Shown: piece after piece, positions 5,127 through 63,344 of the stretch
How the letters are laid out: the number at the start of each line of letters is the position of its first letter
Position numbering within the stretch: the stretch's first letter is position 1
Position numbers and translations under genes: made by a program
Origin: Minisyncoccota bacterium
Lineage (GTDB): Bacteria; Patescibacteriota; Minisyncoccia; Phycocordibacterales; PALSA-1337
Length of the DNA stretch: 64,000 bases
Direction of reading: 5' to 3'
NCBI GenBank assembly: GCA_018060945.1
Contig: JAGOVB010000001.1
Span: 5,238-69,237, forward strand
Notes under the pieces: generated by a model
The model's input: the letters and a program-made list of their open reading frames with translations, nothing else
Databases searched by the model: none
What the model was told of the DNA's origin: nothing

Positions 5127-6857
5127 ATGAAAAAATTTATCAAGCAAAATATCGTTGCATTCATACTGTTTAACATCCTGTACTCCTTGCTTTTTCTAAG
5201 TTTCGTATTTATCCCTGATAGCAGGCAGACCTCACTTTTTCCAGCGCAATATTTCCAAGATGTAGGTAGTAGTGTGGGAAATCTCAGTGCTTCAGTCAAT
5301 AGTATCTTTGTTGAGCTGACCTACTCTAATTTGGCAAGTGGGGTGATGACGGTGTTCATTGTTATTATTCCAGTGTGTTTGCTCGTCACGTCTGTACTTT
5401 TTTTTAGGAGAAATAGGACGCTCTGGGTAATACCATTGTTTATTATATTTTGTACTGCTTACATAATCTCATTGGTTCTTACTCCACAGATAACGACTAT
5501 TCCTACTTTGTTTAGTTACGCTACACAAAATTTAAAAAGAATAGAACCGAGTTATGCTGGCAGTATTGCTGATCCTGAAAAAATAAAGTCCATACTTTCA
5601 AACAGTCCACAAAGAGTGGAAGTGATTTCGGGTTACGGTAACTATAATGAAGCTGTAAATATACTGACAGCTGGGAAACTAAATCAGTACAAGACTATGA
5701 TTGTGCCCACAGCCGCGATCCATCTTGCTTGGAAAGAGGGGTCAGAAACGATTCGAGATGATATGCAAGCTCTTTACTACTATCCCGAAACTCACCGCTT
5801 GGTGGTGAATCGACTAGATGGACTAGATAGCTTTATTGAGTTTCTCTCTATAGACATGATTTCGGATATTGGTAATGAACAACTAAAAAAACTTGTTATA
5901 AAAAAGGGAAATCCAGATGAGTACCGAATTGTTCAACCACAAGAGTATGCAAAATACTACATTGATAAGATTAAACAGAATAATCGGAATAATATTAACT
6001 CAGACTTGGCTATCAAAAATAAGAATCTTGCAGTAGTTAAAGATTGCGAAACTATTAACGCTGAGAACACTAAATTAATTGTGGAACAGAAAACAGATTA
6101 CCAGCTTAACTGCGTAAGTCGAGTACGCTATAGTGACTGTGCAGATTTCAAACTACGCATAGATGAAAACGTAGAGATTTCAAGAAAAACAAATTTATCT
6201 TGTGTTGCTGAAATAGCAAAAGTTAAAAAATACAATGCTGAAATAGATATGGCGGTAAAAACCTCAGTTGAAAGTATTCGTGAAATAGACACTTCTGGTA
6301 CGCTTGAGCGTAATAAAGCAGAGCAAGGGACAGGAGTGTTTATATACCCATCAACAATCTATATCAAGTCGGATCCTTTTACTCATGCCATAATTCCGGC
6401 CTCTGTTCATGAGTTCTTACACTACATCACATCAACACCTTCACGTGATTTACCTGTATCTGTTGACGAAGGTATGACCGACTACCTCACACTGAGATCG
6501 CTAGGGTACGATAAATATCTTACGGTTGCTTATTCTGGATATTATGCAGAAATTCAAATTTTGTATTCACTTCTCGAGAAAATTCCTTTTGATGAAATGG
6601 TGGGTGCGTATATTGCGGGAAGTGAAAGCGGCTTTAGGAAATTATTTGAAAAATACTTTCCTGGAGTGTCATATGAGAAATTTATCTCATTGAGTACTGA
6701 TGTGTACAATACCACATACAAGTTTAAAGGTAATGAAAGAGTAATTAATGCTTTAGGTGATCGAGAGTATATATGGACACAGGATGTGGTTGGGATTCGA
6801 AGATTTCTTGGCCTCGAAGATTTTATCTGGTATAGTAACCCCAATAATAATTTTTAA
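5127..6857 (+). CDS. Membrane protein with large extracytoplasmic domain and HExxH motif (putative zincin-like)
   Basis: N-terminal polytopic TM region followed by a roughly 400 aa soluble domain containing HEFLH. Start set at the ATG at 5127, just after the zwf stop. Confidence 0.4.
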   Translation: MKKFIKQNIVAFILFNILYSLLFLSFVFIPDSRQTSLFPAQYFQDVGSSVGNLSASVNSIFVELTYSNLASGVMTVFIVIIPVCLLVTSVLFFRRNRTLWVIPLFIIFCTAYIISLVLTPQITTIPTLFSYATQNLKRIEPSYAGSIADPEKIKSILSNSPQRVEVISGYGNYNEAVNILTAGKLNQYKTMIVPTAAIHLAWKEGSETIRDDMQALYYYPETHRLVVNRLDGLDSFIEFLSIDMISDIGNEQLKKLVIKKGNPDEYRIVQPQEYAKYYIDKIKQNNRNNINSDLAIKNKNLAVVKDCETINAENTKLIVEQKTDYQLNCVSRVRYSDCADFKLRIDENVEISRKTNLSCVAEIAKVKKYNAEIDMAVKTSVESIREIDTSGTLERNKAEQGTGVFIYPSTIYIKSDPFTHAIIPASVHEFLHYITSTPSRDLPVSVDEGMTDYLTLRSLGYDKYLTVAYSGYYAEIQILYSLLEKIPFDEMVGAYIAGSESGFRKLFEKYFPGVSYEKFISLSTDVYNTTYKFKGNERVINALGDREYIWTQDVVGIRRFLGLEDFIWYSNPNNNF

Positions 6858-9854: not shown

Positions 9855-10070
9855 ATGAATCCTGAGTTAAAAGAAGTAATGCAGGGAATCGCTTTTTATG
9901 GCGGTTCCATCATGTTCATCGTCTGCCTTTTTGTCCTGCTTGTGAGCCTGGTGCTTGCGAACTACTGGCGTGACGATGAAAATGCAAGAAAGTCGATCGT
10001 CAGCGTGTTTTGTTTGGCCTTCGGACTTGTCGCTGTAGCAGCGTTGCTCACTGGTTACAAACCTTGGTAA
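9855..10070 (+). CDS. Small membrane protein
   Basis: 71 aa with two TM helices. May overlap the leuS leader region. Confidence 0.3.
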   Translation: MNPELKEVMQGIAFYGGSIMFIVCLFVLLVSLVLANYWRDDENARKSIVSVFCLAFGLVAVAALLTGYKPW

Positions 10071-10159: not shown

Positions 10160-12997
10160 ATGAAACTAGACCCGAAGGCATACGATCATTCATACATCGA
10201 GAACAAGTGGCAAAAAGAGTGGTCAAAGAAGAAAACATTCGAAACAAAAGATAATTTTGATGCTCCTAAGTTCTATATTCTCGACATGTTTCCGTATCCA
10301 TCTGGCGAAGGTCTCCATGTAGGTCATCCAAAGGGGTATATCGCAACAGACGTTGTCTCTCGTATGAAGCGTATGCAAGGGTTCAATGTACTGCATCCTA
10401 TGGGTTTTGATGCCTTTGGTCTTCCAGCTGAAAACTATGCGATCAAAACAAAGACAAATCCTGTCGACTCAACAAAGAAAAATGTTGCTCGATACAAAAA
10501 GCAGTTAGAGATCCTCGGTTTTGACTATGACTGGAATCGAGAAATCAATACGACTGATCCAAAATATTATAAATGGACACAGTGGATTTTTCTCAAGCTA
10601 CTCGAAAAAGGACTTGCATATGAGTCGTATGAGCCGATCAACTGGTGTCCCGTCGACAAAACAGGGCTTTCGAACGAAGATATTGAAAATGGGCGCTGTG
10701 AACGCTGTGGTTCGCTTGTAGAGAAAAAGCCGATGCGTCAGTGGGTACTGCGCATCACCGACTATGCTGAACGCATGCTTGCAGATCTCGAATACGTAGA
10801 CTGGCCAGAATCTATAAAGGAGAGTCAGAGAAACTGGATCGGTAAAAGTGAAGGAGTAAATTTTAAATGCAAAATAAAAGACTTCGACATTGAAGTTGAG
10901 ATGTTTAACTCTGTACCTCAGACATACCGCGCTGAGACTTTTACAGTGATTGCTCCTGAGCACAAACTGGTAGAAAAATTAGTAAAAGGAACTCCCCAAG
11001 AACAAGTGGTTTTGGATTTTATTAAAAAGATTCAAGAAAAGAAAGCTACAAACAAGTTTGATATCGAAAATGACCTAGAGGGAATATTTACAGGTCGCTA
11101 TATAGAAAATTATGCTGGTACTGGTCGCGATCTCCCAATATGGGTCGCTTCATATGTAGTCGCTGACTACGGAACTGGTATGGTAAATTGCAGTGCTCAT
11201 GATGAGCGAGATTTTAAGTTTGCAAAGAAATACGGTATTCCACTACACCCTGTCGCTGAACCTCTTCTCGTTGTTACCAAAGGGGATGATGCGGTCAGGA
11301 AAGACATGCCATTTGTCGAGCGTAACGCAGTCGTCTGTGTGATCAAACACTGGGCAGAAGAGAAGTATCTTTGTCTTTCATGGAAATCAAATGATTGGAA
11401 AGGTTTTGTGATTGGAGGCATCGAAGAAGGTGAAAGCGCCACAGATGCAGCGACTCGTGAAATCATCGAAGAGACTGGATACAAAAATCCAGTAGTTGTT
11501 AAAAAACTTGGCGGAACTGTGCATGCACAGTTTTATCAAGCACTAAAAAAACAAAATCGTTTTGCGCACTTTACTCCTGTCCTCATCAAGCTTCGAAATG
11601 GAGACCAGAATCCAGTCACTGAGGAAGAAAAGAAAATCCACGACGTACACTGGCTCACTCCTGCAGAAGTTACAAATTTTATAAGCCGAGATGATCAAAA
11701 GGTGATCTGGGAGCGTGCTATAGGAACTGATAAACCTATAATTAAAAATGGCATCCTCACTGAACCAAAAGAGTTCAAAGGACGAGAGTGGAATGAAGTG
11801 CGTCCTGATATCATAGATTTTCTAGTAAAAAGCGGCTTTGCAACACGCAAAGTAAATTACAAACTCCGGGACTGGGTGTTTTCTCGACAGCGATATTGGG
11901 GAGAACCTATTCCTGTATTGCATAAAGATGGAAAGGTTTTTCCTGTATCTGAAAAAGAACTACCGGTGGAGTTACCTGCGGTAAAGTCATACGAGCCAAC
12001 AGGTACAGGTGAGTCACCACTCGCAGGTATCAAGAAGTGGATCAATGTAAAAATTGGGAAAGAAACCTACACCCGAGAGAGCAATACGATGCCTCAGTGG
12101 GCAGGTTCTTCTTGGTACTATCTCCGCTACATGGATCCTGATAATAAAAAAGTACTTGTCGATCCTAAAAAAGAAAAATATTGGAATCAAGTAGACCTCT
12201 ATGTAGGAGGAGCAGAACACGCCACTCGACACCTTATATATGCACGATTCTGGCATAAGTTCCTTTATGACATCGGGATAGTAAGTACGCTCGAACCTTT
12301 CAAACGACTACAGCATGTAGGTCTCATCATGGCAGAAGATGGCAGAAAGATGTCAAAACGATTTGGAAACGTAGTAAATCCAGATGAAATCGTCTCAAAA
12401 TATGGAGCAGACACCCTACGTATATATGAAATGTTTATGGGTCCGTTTGACCAGCAGATAAAATGGGACACAAATAGCATACTGGGGGCCAGACGATTTG
12501 TCGAACGCATCTGGAAGCTCAAAGAAAAGGTAGGCATCGACACTCCATCTAAACATGTTGAATCAGTTCTTCATAAAACAATAAAAAAAGTGAGTGAAGA
12601 CATTGTCATGATGCGTTTCAACACTGCAATCAGCACCCTCATGATCGCACTCAACGAGTTTGAAAAAGAAATGGTCATCCCAAAATCTGTGTACGAAAGC
12701 TTTATACAGTTGATTGCTCCTTTTGCACCGCATATAGCTGAAGAGATCTGGACCAAGATGGGGGGGAAAGAATCGATACATACGTCAGAATGGCCGACAC
12801 ATGACCCGGCAAAGATAACTGAAGATGCAAAGACAATCGTCATTCAGTTCAATGGCAAGACAAAAGGGACGATCGTGGTAGAGGGGAATCCGAGCGACAG
12901 TTATTTAGAGGAGAAAGCCAAGGAGTTTTTGAAGATAACGGAGGTAAAAAAGGTGATAGTTGTACCTGGAAAACTAGTGAATATCGTAGGTGCTTGA
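10160..12997 (+). CDS. leuS: Leucyl-tRNA synthetase with an embedded Nudix-hydrolase domain
   Basis: Class I HIGH (HVGHPKGY) and KMSKR motifs, CP1-like region (GTGMVNCSAHDERDFKFAKKYG) and the conserved RKVNYKLRDWVFSRQRYWGEPIP block. Between them lies about 140 aa with a Nudix box (GGIEEGESATDAATREIIEETGY). Start is the first ATG (MKLDPKAYDH) in the long ORF. Confidence 0.85.
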   Translation: MKLDPKAYDHSYIENKWQKEWSKKKTFETKDNFDAPKFYILDMFPYPSGEGLHVGHPKGYIATDVVSRMKRMQGFNVLHPMGFDAFGLPAENYAIKTKTNPVDSTKKNVARYKKQLEILGFDYDWNREINTTDPKYYKWTQWIFLKLLEKGLAYESYEPINWCPVDKTGLSNEDIENGRCERCGSLVEKKPMRQWVLRITDYAERMLADLEYVDWPESIKESQRNWIGKSEGVNFKCKIKDFDIEVEMFNSVPQTYRAETFTVIAPEHKLVEKLVKGTPQEQVVLDFIKKIQEKKATNKFDIENDLEGIFTGRYIENYAGTGRDLPIWVASYVVADYGTGMVNCSAHDERDFKFAKKYGIPLHPVAEPLLVVTKGDDAVRKDMPFVERNAVVCVIKHWAEEKYLCLSWKSNDWKGFVIGGIEEGESATDAATREIIEETGYKNPVVVKKLGGTVHAQFYQALKKQNRFAHFTPVLIKLRNGDQNPVTEEEKKIHDVHWLTPAEVTNFISRDDQKVIWERAIGTDKPIIKNGILTEPKEFKGREWNEVRPDIIDFLVKSGFATRKVNYKLRDWVFSRQRYWGEPIPVLHKDGKVFPVSEKELPVELPAVKSYEPTGTGESPLAGIKKWINVKIGKETYTRESNTMPQWAGSSWYYLRYMDPDNKKVLVDPKKEKYWNQVDLYVGGAEHATRHLIYARFWHKFLYDIGIVSTLEPFKRLQHVGLIMAEDGRKMSKRFGNVVNPDEIVSKYGADTLRIYEMFMGPFDQQIKWDTNSILGARRFVERIWKLKEKVGIDTPSKHVESVLHKTIKKVSEDIVMMRFNTAISTLMIALNEFEKEMVIPKSVYESFIQLIAPFAPHIAEEIWTKMGGKESIHTSEWPTHDPAKITEDAKTIVIQFNGKTKGTIVVEGNPSDSYLEEKAKEFLKITEVKKVIVVPGKLVNIVGA

Positions 12998-14088
12998 CCT
13001 TATACGCTAAGTATGATAAAACTATAACATCCTATAAAACACATATGGCACCAATAGACTTCAAACCAAAACAAACAGTTAAAAAGCTCCTCTCGGTGCT
13101 TCCTGAACGTGCTCGTGATGTTCTGATTCAGCGATATGGACTTGGTAAAAGCACTACTCGCATGACTCTAGATGCGATTGGTAAACTTTACGGTATTACC
13201 CGTGAACGTGTCCGCCAAATCGAAAACTATGCACTGACCAACATCCGTAAATCAGAAGCCTACAAGACCGAGAAGGCAGCTTTTGCTCATCTCGAAGAGA
13301 ACATCCACACTCTCGGTGGTATCGTGTTGGAGACAGATCTACTTGAGCATATGTCAAAAGAAGTTTCTACCCAAAACCATATTAACTTCCTCCTCGCACT
13401 CCATGAGTCATTTAAAAAGCGAAAAGAAGATGAACATTTTGAACATCGATGGCATGTAAATGAAGAGCTCGCACAAAAAGTAGAAGACGCGCTCCACAAG
13501 CTATATTCAAACCTTGACGATAACGATTTACTCCAAGAATCAGAGATGATTCAGTCATTCCTAGAACATCTAGAGGACGTTTCTGAAAAATACAAAAACC
13601 AGGAAATTCTTACTCGATGGCTTTCTATCTCAAAGAAAGTTGGAAAGAATGCGCTCGGTGAATGGGGTGTTTCAAACTCTTCAAATATTAAAACAAAAGG
13701 TATGCGAGACTATGCATTCCTTGTTATCCGAAAACATGGTTCTCCTATACACTTTCGAGAAGTAGCAAAGAACATTGAGAAAATCTTCAAAAAGAAGGCT
13801 CATGTTGCAACTTGTCACAATGAACTCATTAAAGATCCACGCTTTGTACTCGTTGGTCGTGGTCTCTATGCACTAAAAGAATGGGGATATGCTAGTGGAG
13901 TTGTCCGAGATGTGATCCGAGCAATCGTTGTTAAAAATGGCCCTCTCACAAAAGAGCAGGTTATTGAAAAAGTCCTCAAAGAACGATACGTAAAAGAAAA
14001 TACTATTATGGTAAATCTCCAGAACCAAAAGTATTTCAAGAAGGATAAAGAGGGACGATATTCTATTGTAGAACAAACTAAGGTATAA
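12994..14088 (+). CDS. Sigma-70 region-4-like HTH protein with C-terminal domain of unknown function
   Basis: N-terminal PERARDVLIQRYGL...TLDAIGKLYGITRERVRQIENYALTNIRK resembles sigma-70 region 4 (HTH). TTG start at 12994 overlaps the leuS stop. The first ATG in frame is at 13045. Confidence 0.5.
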   Translation: MTLYAKYDKTITSYKTHMAPIDFKPKQTVKKLLSVLPERARDVLIQRYGLGKSTTRMTLDAIGKLYGITRERVRQIENYALTNIRKSEAYKTEKAAFAHLEENIHTLGGIVLETDLLEHMSKEVSTQNHINFLLALHESFKKRKEDEHFEHRWHVNEELAQKVEDALHKLYSNLDDNDLLQESEMIQSFLEHLEDVSEKYKNQEILTRWLSISKKVGKNALGEWGVSNSSNIKTKGMRDYAFLVIRKHGSPIHFREVAKNIEKIFKKKAHVATCHNELIKDPRFVLVGRGLYALKEWGYASGVVRDVIRAIVVKNGPLTKEQVIEKVLKERYVKENTIMVNLQNQKYFKKDKEGRYSIVEQTKV

Positions 14089-17160: not shown

Positions 17161-18015
17161 ATGGAAAAACCCATATACATAAAGAAAGCTGACGGAACGC
17201 TAGAACCCTTTAATGAAAACAAACTGATTGAGTCTCTAGAGCATGTCGGTGCTGACAAAGATGTCATCGATAGTATTGTCGAAAAAGTAAAAAGAGAAAT
17301 CAAAGATGGGATGACGACAGGAGCTATCTATCACCTCGCTTTTTCACATTTACGAGAATCAAAGACAAATACCGCAGTAAAATATTCGCTTCGACGCGCA
17401 CTTTCAGAGCTCGGTCCAAACGGATTTCCTTTTGAGCGTTTTATTGCTGAAATATTCAAAACCCAAGGTTACGAAGCAGTAACTGATCAGGTTGTATATG
17501 GCGCTTGTGTACCACACGAAGTAGATGTAGTCGCTTGGAAAGGAGACGAGCTCATCATGGTTGAAGCAAAATTTCACAATGAGTTTGGGTTCAAGTCTGA
17601 TGTCAAAGTTGCTCTATATGTAAAAGCTCGATTTGATGATTTGAAAGAAAATGAATTTGAGTACGGAGGTAAAAAAAGAAAGATCACTGATGCATGGCTC
17701 GTTACCAATACAAAGTTTACTGATCAGGCGATTCACTATGCCGAATGTAAAGGTTTGAAACTTATTGGTTGGAACTATCCTGCTCAAAACAACCTCCAAG
17801 ATATGATTGAACAATCGAATCTGCATCCGTTTACCGCACTCACTTCGCTCAGCGCTACTCAAAAGAAATATCTGCTTGCTCATAATATTCTTATGTGTAA
17901 AGATATCCCGCATCACCAAGAATTATTAAAAGAACAAGGCATGTCATCGGAGGACATTGCTAAAGTACTAAAAGAAATCGACTCTATATATGAAACTTCT
18001 AGAAAGACTGAATAG
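17161..18015 (+). CDS. ATP-cone domain fused to Mrr-like (PD-(D/E)xK) restriction-endonuclease domain
   Basis: N-terminal ATP-cone (IYIKKADGTLEPFNENKLIESLEHVGADKDVIDSIVEKV...). Then an Mrr_cat-like core FERFIAEIFKTQGYEAV...VDVVAWKGDELIMVEAKFH (D-x12-EAK). Confidence 0.6.
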   Translation: MEKPIYIKKADGTLEPFNENKLIESLEHVGADKDVIDSIVEKVKREIKDGMTTGAIYHLAFSHLRESKTNTAVKYSLRRALSELGPNGFPFERFIAEIFKTQGYEAVTDQVVYGACVPHEVDVVAWKGDELIMVEAKFHNEFGFKSDVKVALYVKARFDDLKENEFEYGGKKRKITDAWLVTNTKFTDQAIHYAECKGLKLIGWNYPAQNNLQDMIEQSNLHPFTALTSLSATQKKYLLAHNILMCKDIPHHQELLKEQGMSSEDIAKVLKEIDSIYETSRKTE

Positions 18016-62330: not shown

Positions 62331-62767
62331 TATATAAAATCAATTTGAGAAACTTCGTCTTTAAAACTTTCTATTTCTTTAAGAACTTTATTATGGATAC
62401 CTACTGCCTTATCGTAATTTTCTTTATTAATCGAATCGGGGTTAGCCAAGGACTCTTTCACTGAATTTATAATTTCAAGTTCCTCGGGACTGACAAAAGT
62501 TGCCAGAGAGACATAGGAATTTGCAAGAACCATGATCTGGTCCTTAATCTTTTTCTTTATTTCCTCTTTTGAGCCTGACAGTGTAGAGGAATCATTAAGC
62601 GATACAGCAAAAGGCACGTGCCCAAATAGGAGTGCTTTGTTGGTATTAAATTTTGGGGGTTCGTAAATTGGATTCTTCATAGGGTTCATATGATACACAA
62701 AAAGCCCACCACATGAGTAGAGGCCGAAGCCCCTCATACCAGTTTCCCGGTATGGCCTGACGGACAC
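62330..62767 (-). CDS. Hypothetical protein (minus strand)
   Basis: 145 aa ORF ending at the bidirectional terminator. No motif recognised. Confidence 0.35.
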   Translation of the reverse strand: MSVRPYRETGMRGFGLYSCGGLFVYHMNPMKNPIYEPPKFNTNKALLFGHVPFAVSLNDSSTLSGSKEEIKKKIKDQIMVLANSYVSLATFVSPEELEIINSVKESLANPDSINKENYDKAVGIHNKVLKEIESFKDEVSQIDFI

Positions 62768-63344
62768 CCCATATGATGGGTTCTTTGTGTCCGTCAGGAC
62801 TTTTTCGCCATGCCAGTGATGTCACTAGTTTAGGCTACTTTATATTCAGTTGTGAGTGCATTATACCAAAAACTTTTACTCATTTGAAGGCCTCATCTTT
62901 TTGTTTCGTAATTTGAAAATACTAGGCCACATATATTAAAAATGTCTGGTATGCAAGAAATAAAATGTGCATAAATCTGTGTATTAATTGTGGATGAAAA
63001 TGGAGTTAAAATTCATTGACGATCAAAACCAGCGGCGCTAGTATTGGCATTAAGAAGCCACCCAAAAAGCTTCGAATTAAATTAATAGTCTAATAAGCCT
63101 TGGTGTTCCTACGGGAACCTGCCTCTCGAAAAGGCATATATTAACCCAAGTGTTGACGATTTACCGATAATATAACTCTGTCCTTCAAGGCCTAGCATTG
63201 CCTGCGACGTTGTTATAGTATCAGTTTTAAGCTTTTCCCTTTGATTAGCATCGAGGGTTTCCCAGCTAGTAATAGGTGGGTGGAAAAAGCGTCGCACAAA
63301 CCCAGGGTTAATATACTGGGTTTTGTGTTATCTAAGGAAAATGT

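Follow-up and report, generated by a model that had tools for sequence, protein, structure and literature searches.

Aminoacyl-tRNA synthetases (aaRSs), which count among the most thoroughly studied enzymes, are known in several instances to carry a hydrolase domain spliced into or onto the synthetase, as in the editing inserts CP1 of leucyl-, isoleucyl-, and valyl-tRNA synthetase (LeuRS, IleRS, and ValRS), INS of bacterial prolyl-tRNA synthetase (ProRS), and N2 of threonyl-tRNA synthetase (ThrRS); IleRS with a GNAT domain (NCBIfam NF040702) is likewise a variant with an accessory domain. Such accessory domains have repeatedly revealed new biology, including editing, signaling, and complex formation. 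Here, we describe an accessory hydrolase domain of a different chemistry, which is nested inside the editing domain itself: a Nudix domain in the LeuRS encoded by the leuS gene of a Minisyncoccota bacterium, located on a stretch of 64,000 nucleotides (positions 5,238 to 69,237 of contig JAGOVB010000001.1, assembly GCA_018060945.1) that is referred to as the window. The known editing modules attack the aminoacyl ester of mischarged tRNA, whereas the target of a Nudix domain is the pyrophosphate bond; the insert sits inside CP1, which is in turn an insert in the Rossmann fold. This architecture is both recurrent and clade-wide.

The removal of a synthetase side-product provides a second point of comparison. 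Diadenosine tetraphosphate (Ap4A) made by aaRSs is removed by hydrolases such as ApaH and RppH in E. coli and, in eukaryotes, through the LysRS–Ap4A–NUDT2/HINT1 axis, and the logic proposed below is the same. In these known systems, however, the hydrolase is a separate, unlinked protein, and Ap4A comes mainly from LysRS and PheRS, not from LeuRS. With respect to structure, the group of diadenosine polyphosphate (ApnA) hydrolases and RppH (Aquifex 3I7U, T. thermophilus Ndx1 1VC8, Chlamydia CT771 4MPO, and E. coli RppH 4S2W) resembles the nested module in its fold, its canonical Nudix box, and an aromatic residue in the X-loop. The members of this group are free-standing, whereas the module is nested in an aaRS and has invariant residues of its own. 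The mycobacterial MutT1/Rv2985, a hydrolase of 8-oxo-(d)GTP and diadenosine polyphosphates, is also among the top structural neighbors of the module. MutT1 combines a Nudix with a histidine-phosphatase domain, an arrangement paralleled by the HAD domain in LeuRS relatives and by His_Phos_1 in an IleRS-like gene; however, it is not part of a synthetase, and its identity to the module is only ~20%.

A full-text search of the literature gave no account of an aaRS, of whatever kind, with a Nudix domain, and a comprehensive survey of the Nudix clan from 2017 makes no mention of tRNA synthetases (PMC5389931). The sequences themselves are already public, with automatic Pfam matches.

A Nudix Hydrolase Nested in the CP1 Domain of LeuRS

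The leuS gene is a single uninterrupted open reading frame (ORF) that runs to the stop codon at 12997 and begins either with TTG at 10010 or, more plausibly, with ATG at 10160 (MKLDPKAYDH...). Its 945-aa product scores 923 bits against the bacterial LeuRS model TIGR00396 (cut-off 548), and Pfam recognizes tRNA-synt_1, the LeuRS editing domain, NUDIX (PF00293), and Anticodon_1 in it. The protein can be aligned along its length with the LeuRS structures of T. thermophilus (1H3N) and E. coli. In our alignment A3, H53, G55, and H56 of the HIGH-type motif and H347, D348, R350, and D351 of the editing-site motif AHDERD are invariant. The features of the gene are collected in Table 1.

The Nudix module, ~160 residues long, occupies a surface loop of the CP1 domain, at a distance of 17 residues from the preceding AHDERD. 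The editing-domain match (PF13603, aa 224–368) covers only profile positions 1–142 of 185 and ends just before the NUDIX match, which spans aa 392–505 (E = 1.7e-13; 51.2 bits against a gathering cut-off of 21.1). In the alignment with 1H3N, query residue 367 pairs with residue 363 and query residue 529 with residue 379; thus, ~146 extra residues lie at aa 368–528. The same expansion is evident from an insertion-free relative of 817 aa (P0115), in which 80 residues separate AHDxRD from YKLRDW, compared with 221 in the window. These data bear out the original prediction, made from the letters of the DNA alone, that a Nudix domain is embedded in a 945-aa LeuS between coordinates 11240 and 11860 (aa 361–567), an interval that encloses the module, and they agree with its estimate of about 190 residues where about 50 are usual. 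The canonical Nudix box had also been quoted exactly: G419-GIEEG-E425-SATDAAT-R433-E434-II-E437-E438-T-G440-Y441 fits the consensus GX5EX7REUXEEXGU at every position. Additionally, the module has invariant residues of its own, i.e., R388, K463-x2-N466-R467, and W498.

Table 1. Coordinates of leuS, its motifs and domains, and the free-standing Nudix gene in the window.
Feature	Position in window	Strand	Basis
Free-standing Nudix gene, 161 aa	434..919	+	PF00293, E = 4.4e-11
leuS CDS, bacterial-type leucyl-tRNA synthetase with insert, 945 aa	10160..12997	+	ORF, TIGR00396, LeuRS structure alignment
HIGH-type motif HVGH (aa 53–56)	10316..10327	+	Pairs with HMGH of T. thermophilus LeuRS
CP1 editing domain, N-terminal part (aa 224–367)	10829..11260	+	PF13603
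Threonine-rich editing motif, non-canonical NSVPQT (aa 250–255), expected TTRPDT	10907..10924	+	Alignment to FTTRPDT of T. thermophilus LeuRS
Editing-site motif AHDERD (aa 346–351)	11195..11212	+	Conserved Asp residues present
Nested Nudix module, insertion site S2 (aa 368–528)	11261..11743	+	Pfam, gap in PDB alignment, family profile HMM positions 1–160, AlphaFold2, Foldseek, dN/dS
Nudix box GGIEEGESATDAATREIIEETGY (aa 419–441)	11414..11482	+	Sequence; residue conservation
X-loop aromatic pair F458/Y459 and family motif K463-x2-N466-R467	11531..11560	+	Nearly invariant in relatives
CP1 C-terminal remainder through KVNYKLRDW (aa 529–572)	11744..11875	+	T. thermophilus alignment resumes, query 529 = residue 379
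KMSKS-type motif KMSKR (aa 730–734)	12347..12361	+	T. thermophilus alignment

Structure prediction confirmed the alpha/beta/alpha Nudix fold at the level of the model. The AlphaFold2 (AF2) model of the module alone reached a mean predicted local distance difference test (pLDDT) score of 95.9 and a predicted template modeling score (pTM) of 0.89, and a Foldseek search with it retrieved 529 Nudix chains of the PDB at E ≤ 1e-3, with template modeling (TM) scores of up to 0.80. In the model of full-length LeuRS (pLDDT 85, pTM 0.70), the module region, junctions included, is predicted at a pLDDT of 86–95, and residues 361–530 rank among its most confident parts.

The insert is also under purifying selection. 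In a comparison with the closest available genome, L007 (94% identity at the amino-acid level, dS ~0.9), the module shows a ratio of nonsynonymous to synonymous substitution rates (dN/dS) of 0.033, compared with 0.038 in the synthetase core; the constraint on the insert is equal to that on the essential enzyme that surrounds it. Among 103 copies at the same insertion site, the metal-ligand glutamates are retained almost throughout (E434 in 102, E437 in 97, and E438 in 99). The presence of a Nudix domain nested in LeuRS, with all catalytic residues of the box kept in the copy of the window, is thus confirmed.

Occurrence and Architectures among Relatives

A homologue search was performed in a collection of 5.8 billion proteins, and the same ~160-residue module is present in 119 of the 120 closest LeuRS homologues. 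When one genome per prokaryotic species was scanned with the module alignment (A2), at least 518 loci were found to encode a relative of the module, and 79 of the best 80 species-level loci place it inside a LeuRS ORF. These 80 genomes are all labeled as, or resemble, Patescibacteria/Parcubacteria, with record titles that include Taylor-, Vogel-, Nomura-, Kaiser-, Jorgensen-, Zambryski-, Adler-, Komeili-, Colwell-, and Moraniibacteria, Paceibacterota, and the Parcubacteria group; the labels are those of the submitters, and a few automatic ones (Saccharibacteria, Gammaproteobacteria, and Nanoarchaeota) are not to be trusted. An exhaustive profile search yielded 172 clusters (50% identity) at E ≤ 1e-30, and the top 150 consist of 101 LeuRSs or LeuRS fragments, 36 free-standing proteins of 126–232 aa, 12 others that are mostly LeuRS fragments, and one ProRS. 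Many of the synthetases are annotated merely as "class I tRNA ligase family protein" or, wrongly, as "alpha/beta fold hydrolase" or "non-canonical purine NTP pyrophosphatase". At one locus (L084, 2909–4507), the LeuRS ORF ends right past the Nudix module, so that only the N-terminal part of LeuRS is in frame, which represents either a natural split LeuRS or an indel error of long-read assembly.

Two insertion sites can be distinguished in the numbering of P0115. The site of the window (S2) follows residue 377, and a second site (S1) follows residue 214 at the junction of the catalytic core and CP1, where the module can be doubled in tandem. The single canonical module at S2, as in the window, is the commonest form (60 of 121), and the remaining forms carry the module at S1 only, at both sites, or in three copies in enzymes of ~1300 aa. 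Two flavors of the module are found as well, the E-type with the canonical box, to which the window belongs, and a Q-type with the covarying changes E425Q and R433A, in which the three metal-ligand glutamates are kept. Copies within one protein are mutually only 30–36% identical, which rules out recent intragenic duplication as the origin of the multi-copy forms, while Q-type copies group together at 50–57% identity whatever their site. The low identity within proteins and the clustering of Q-type copies across sites therefore indicate old, repeated insertions.

The same module is present in a small group of ProRSs of five clusters (L006 2762–4693, encoding P0243, and P0270–P0273). These enzymes are archaeal-type ProRSs, in which the module lies between the anticodon-binding and ProRS-C_1 domains, and ~115 close ProRS relatives are without it. 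Since the closest insert-free relatives are labeled Woesearchaeota/Nanoarchaeota, the insertion event may lie in DPANN archaea.

Further inserted hydrolases accompany one to three Nudix modules in LeuRS relatives of 1100–1558 aa (P0014, P0017, P0046, P0063, P0069, P0078, P0087, and P0106). A HAD domain is located inside the CPKCGG zinc knuckle (P0014, P0017, and P0078), an alpha/beta Ser_hydrolase (PF06821) lies in the first strands of CP1 or later (P0046, P0063, and P0087), and Ham1/ITPase occupies the core–CP1 junction of P0106.

Free-Standing Members and Gene Neighborhoods

The module family is lineage-specific and also exists as a small free-standing gene, often directly upstream of leuS. 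In a small sample of nine free-standing members, four (P0121, P0122, P0139, and P0148) lie immediately before leuS, 2–11 nt from its 5′ end; the LeuRS downstream of P0121 has no insert, and those downstream of P0122 and P0139 already possess one. Of the others, one belongs to a metS...leuS cluster in which a second Nudix gene abuts leuS, one abuts argS and lies upstream of an IleRS-like gene into which a histidine-phosphatase domain is inserted, one is two genes upstream of a Nudix-bearing proS, one adjoins fpg, and one has no informative neighbor. Overall, an aaRS gene is found within ~2.5 kb of seven of the nine. A family that is fused in some genomes and closely adjacent in others shows the classic Rosetta-stone signature of a functional link. 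The IleRS-like class I synthetase mentioned above (L090, 4594–7498) consists of tRNA-synt_1, Anticodon_1, and DUF5915 with the inserted His_Phos_1 domain, and it is surrounded by two Nudix genes, a dUTPase gene, and argS.

The synteny YchF ... [Nudix]–leuS–sigma70_r4/HARE-HTH of these loci is kept in the window, save that an EVE-domain gene fills the slot upstream of leuS. Downstream, with a 4-nt overlap at the leuS stop codon, lies a gene for Sigma70_r4 and HARE-HTH domains (12994–14088); its presence behind leuS in a related metagenomic locus as well suggests that the operon is conserved. The stand-alone Nudix protein that had been noted elsewhere in the window (Table 1) is real. It shares 27% identity with the insert over 97 aa (E = 4e-8) as well as the motif xxNRxAH, and by this sequence comparison it is a distant member of the family of the insert. 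A tRNA-Ala(UGC) gene (357–430) lies 4 nt ahead of it.

Nearest Known Enzymes and Putative Substrate

The top Foldseek matches of the module are an uncharacterized MutT/nudix protein of E. faecalis (2AZW) and the Aquifex Ap4A hydrolase (3I7U; TM 0.80, 24% identity), which is also its best sequence match in the PDB (E = 1e-5), and are followed by M. smegmatis MutT1, M. tuberculosis Rv2985, T. thermophilus Ndx1 Ap6A hydrolase, Chlamydia CT771 Ap4A hydrolase, and E. coli RppH. No MutT 8-oxo-dGTPase model (TIGR00586/PRK10776) matches the module at E ≤ 0.01, and the MutT1 model scores 19 bits against a cut-off of 475. A tyrosine in the X-loop, ~17 residues past the Nudix motif, marks ApnA hydrolases (Dunn 1999, cited in PMC5389931). 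An aromatic pair (FY, FF, YY, or YF) is found at positions +17 and +18 past the box in 142 of 165 copies of the module, corresponding to F458 and Y459 in the window.

We propose, with a probability of about one half, that the module is an active pyrophosphohydrolase coupled to the synthetase, which would clear dinucleoside polyphosphates or aberrant purine nucleoside triphosphates (NTPs). The conserved glutamates and the purifying selection suggest that it acts as a Mg2+-dependent enzyme while attached to a LeuRS that consumes ATP. Its likeliest substrates would be those of its nearest structural relatives, i.e., Ap4A and related ApnA, formed by synthetases in the reaction of enzyme-bound aminoacyl-adenylate with ATP, or else aberrant purine NTPs. 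The role of the module would thus be nucleotide clean-up coupled to LeuRS and not a second site of amino-acid proofreading. The family itself has entered LeuRS on repeated occasions, with two sites, two flavors, and one to three copies, and it has also entered a ProRS. The proposal in the original prediction that the insert might hydrolyze Ap4A-type by-products is accordingly the part of its functional guess that fits best, given that Ap4A and Ap6A hydrolases, MutT1/Rv2985, and RppH are the nearest neighbors in sequence and model comparisons; its other suggestion, the hydrolysis of mischarged adenylates as extra proofreading, does not stand, as discussed below.

Together, the insertions and the leuS-adjacent genes provide strong comparative evidence for an unrecognized functional link between aminoacylation and the hydrolysis of nucleotides (ApnA or NTPs). 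In a large bacterial radiation that is still poorly understood, the editing domain of LeuRS has acquired a Nudix domain with intact catalytic residues, independently at several sites, as well as in several copies. This architecture offers a clonable system for asking whether the dinucleoside polyphosphates made by synthetases are a burden or a signal in cells, and it identifies the CP1 loops as permissive for the grafting of domains.

Several observations weigh against such a coupled clean-up. The NCBIfam equivalog models all score the module far below their cut-offs, the best being RppH (PRK00714) with 29.6 bits against 118; therefore, the module is not assignable to any characterized subfamily. 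Structural similarity does not separate an ApnA hydrolase from an RppH-like RNA pyrophosphohydrolase or a MutT-like NTPase in the model comparison: the ApnA hydrolases 3I7U, 1VC8, 4MPO, and 9CXX rank high, but MutT1, RppH, NudB, and NudI do so too. The X-loop residue at +17 is Phe instead of the classical Tyr, and to our knowledge LeuRS is not a strong producer of Ap4A. Furthermore, the module is decaying in the four relatives that come closest to the window enzyme below 90% identity, at 82% (P0002, P0003, P0005, and P0006; 925–926 aa), in which GG is replaced by NE and the catalytic EE by MI or NN, ~20 residues are deleted, and the Pfam score falls to 24 bits. The activity is therefore dispensable in some lineages and not indispensable to LeuRS. 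Finally, the company of the module, namely Ham1/ITPase, HAD, alpha/beta hydrolase, His_Phos, dUTPase, YfbR-like HD, and fpg, fits a looser picture of house-cleaning equally.

Alternative Explanations

In that looser picture, which is possible although we consider it doubtful, the module would be a sanitizer of the nucleotide pool in the style of MutT or ITPase (acting on, e.g., 8-oxo-GTP or other damaged NTPs), mechanistically unconnected to leucylation. It would reside in or near aaRS genes as a hitch-hiker, since these are essential and constitutively expressed in a streamlined genome and the loops of CP1 tolerate insertions. Ham1/ITPase, HAD, and alpha/beta Ser_hydrolase domains in the same proteins of LeuRS relatives, His_Phos_1 in the IleRS-like gene, and genes for dUTPase, YfbR-like HD nucleotidase, TatD, and fpg near free-standing members are all consistent with such a role, as are the place of MutT1 among the top structural matches and the loss of activity in the closest relatives, where LeuRS is retained. 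However, operon adjacency or a terminal fusion would suffice for simple co-expression, whereas the insertions are internal, repeated, and confined to two defined sites of the CP1 region and to ProRS, and four of the nine free-standing members abut leuS specifically. The repeated internal insertion and the adjacency to leuS suggest selection for physical proximity to LeuRS.

A wider reading, which we regard as unlikely, treats patescibacterial synthetases (LeuRS above all, ProRS, and the IleRS-like enzyme) as scaffolds for an unrecognized layer of quality control or signaling, in which Nudix together with HAD, His-phosphatase, Ham1, and esterase modules on the tRNA-handling CP1 domain would act on a synthetase-bound species, either ApnA alarmones produced in situ or modified tRNA ends (5′ ends with a cap or CCA ends with a pyrophosphate). 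If true, aminoacylation would be coupled directly to nucleotide signaling or tRNA repair.

It is also unlikely that the module is an RppH-like or decapping enzyme of RNA ends, which would remove a 5′ triphosphate, an Np4N or NAD cap, or a pyrophosphate of the CCA end from tRNALeu or other RNAs. The best, albeit weak, NCBIfam matches are indeed RppH models (E = 5e-7 for the module and 4e-10 for the free-standing P0121), yet all of these scores are far below the family cut-offs. The PDB neighbors include RNA-bound RppH, Dcp2, and decapping Nudix effectors, and both insertion sites lie in or beside CP1, the domain of LeuRS that binds the tRNA 3′ end; the HAD or His_Phos phosphatase inserts in relatives could then complete the repair of an end. 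However, the 5′ ends of tRNAs are normally monophosphates, which are made by RNase P, and the insertion in ProRS is past the anticodon-binding domain, far from the acceptor end.

Extra proofreading, directed at Leu-AMP, non-cognate adenylates, or mischarged tRNA, is very unlikely, and so is a non-catalytic regulatory or structural domain that binds ADP-ribose or ApnA. The threonine-rich editing motif of CP1 would be an argument for the former, since the window has NSVPQT, which keeps only the last Thr of the near-universal TTRPDT, and another subclade has SAHFEA. Three classes of this motif occur among the relatives (FTTRPDT, YNSVPQT, and FSAHFEA), and the insert is found with all three, so that no correlation exists among them between the insert and the loss of the canonical motif. 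The insert is equally present in LeuRSs with canonical FTTRPDT, and nothing therefore links it to editing. Moreover, the conserved editing aspartates of AHDERD are kept, and Nudix enzymes cleave pyrophosphate linkages rather than acyl-phosphate or ester bonds. For the regulatory variant, the Q-type flavor with E425Q and R433A exists, and other proteins are known to contain Nudix domains that do not catalyze a reaction (PMC5389931). The metal-binding glutamates present in 94–99% of the S2 copies argue for catalysis over mere binding. Editing itself may be altered in the NSVPQT and FSAHFEA lineages, judging from the motifs; FSAHFEA has Ala at the site where a T-to-A substitution in the E. coli enzyme is known to permit the deacylation of Leu-tRNALeu.

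An artifact or selfish element (a frameshift, a chimera of two genes, an intein, or a recent mobile insertion) has a negligible chance of explaining the module, since LeuRS sequence flanks it on both sides in one reading frame, the same nested architecture recurs in independent assemblies from NCBI, JGI, ENA, and Logan, the GC content is flat across leuS (0.40–0.45), and a dN/dS of 0.033 is at odds with it. The single ORF, the LeuRS sequence on both sides, and this recurrence rule out a frameshift or assembly fusion. An intein is ruled out as well, with no Hint, LAGLIDADG, or endonuclease match in Pfam and with module ends (PLLVV and DKPII-KNG) that differ from the splice residues of an intein, for which Cys or Ser would be expected at the N terminus and His-Asn plus a nucleophile at the C terminus. 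The one feature in favor of an insertion element is a near-identical direct repeat of 10 nt that brackets the module, TCGCTGAACC at 11253–11262 and TCACTGAACC at 11757–11766 (encoding AEP and TEP); an imperfect repeat of this length is expected at chance level, and it is probably due to chance, although it might also be a remnant of the original insertion.

Other Features of LeuRS and of the Window

The leucine-specific domain, which comprises ~55 aa before KMSKS in the E. coli and T. thermophilus enzymes and is probably not universal among bacterial LeuRSs, is absent from the window LeuRS, in which residues 726 and 730 pair with residues 580 and 637 of the T. thermophilus protein. At its position, the window (12320–12361; aa 721–734) reads GLIMAEDGRKMSKR. 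The Nudix insert is thus ruled out as a leucine-specific domain, which sits elsewhere in LeuRS.

Apart from leuS, the ORF at 17161–18015 encodes an unusual combination of an N-terminal ATP-cone and a catalytic domain of the Mrr restriction-endonuclease type. In addition, a full-length match to the LOOT RNA motif (RF03000) is located on the minus strand at 62719–62836, with a score of 82 bits against a gathering score of 46.

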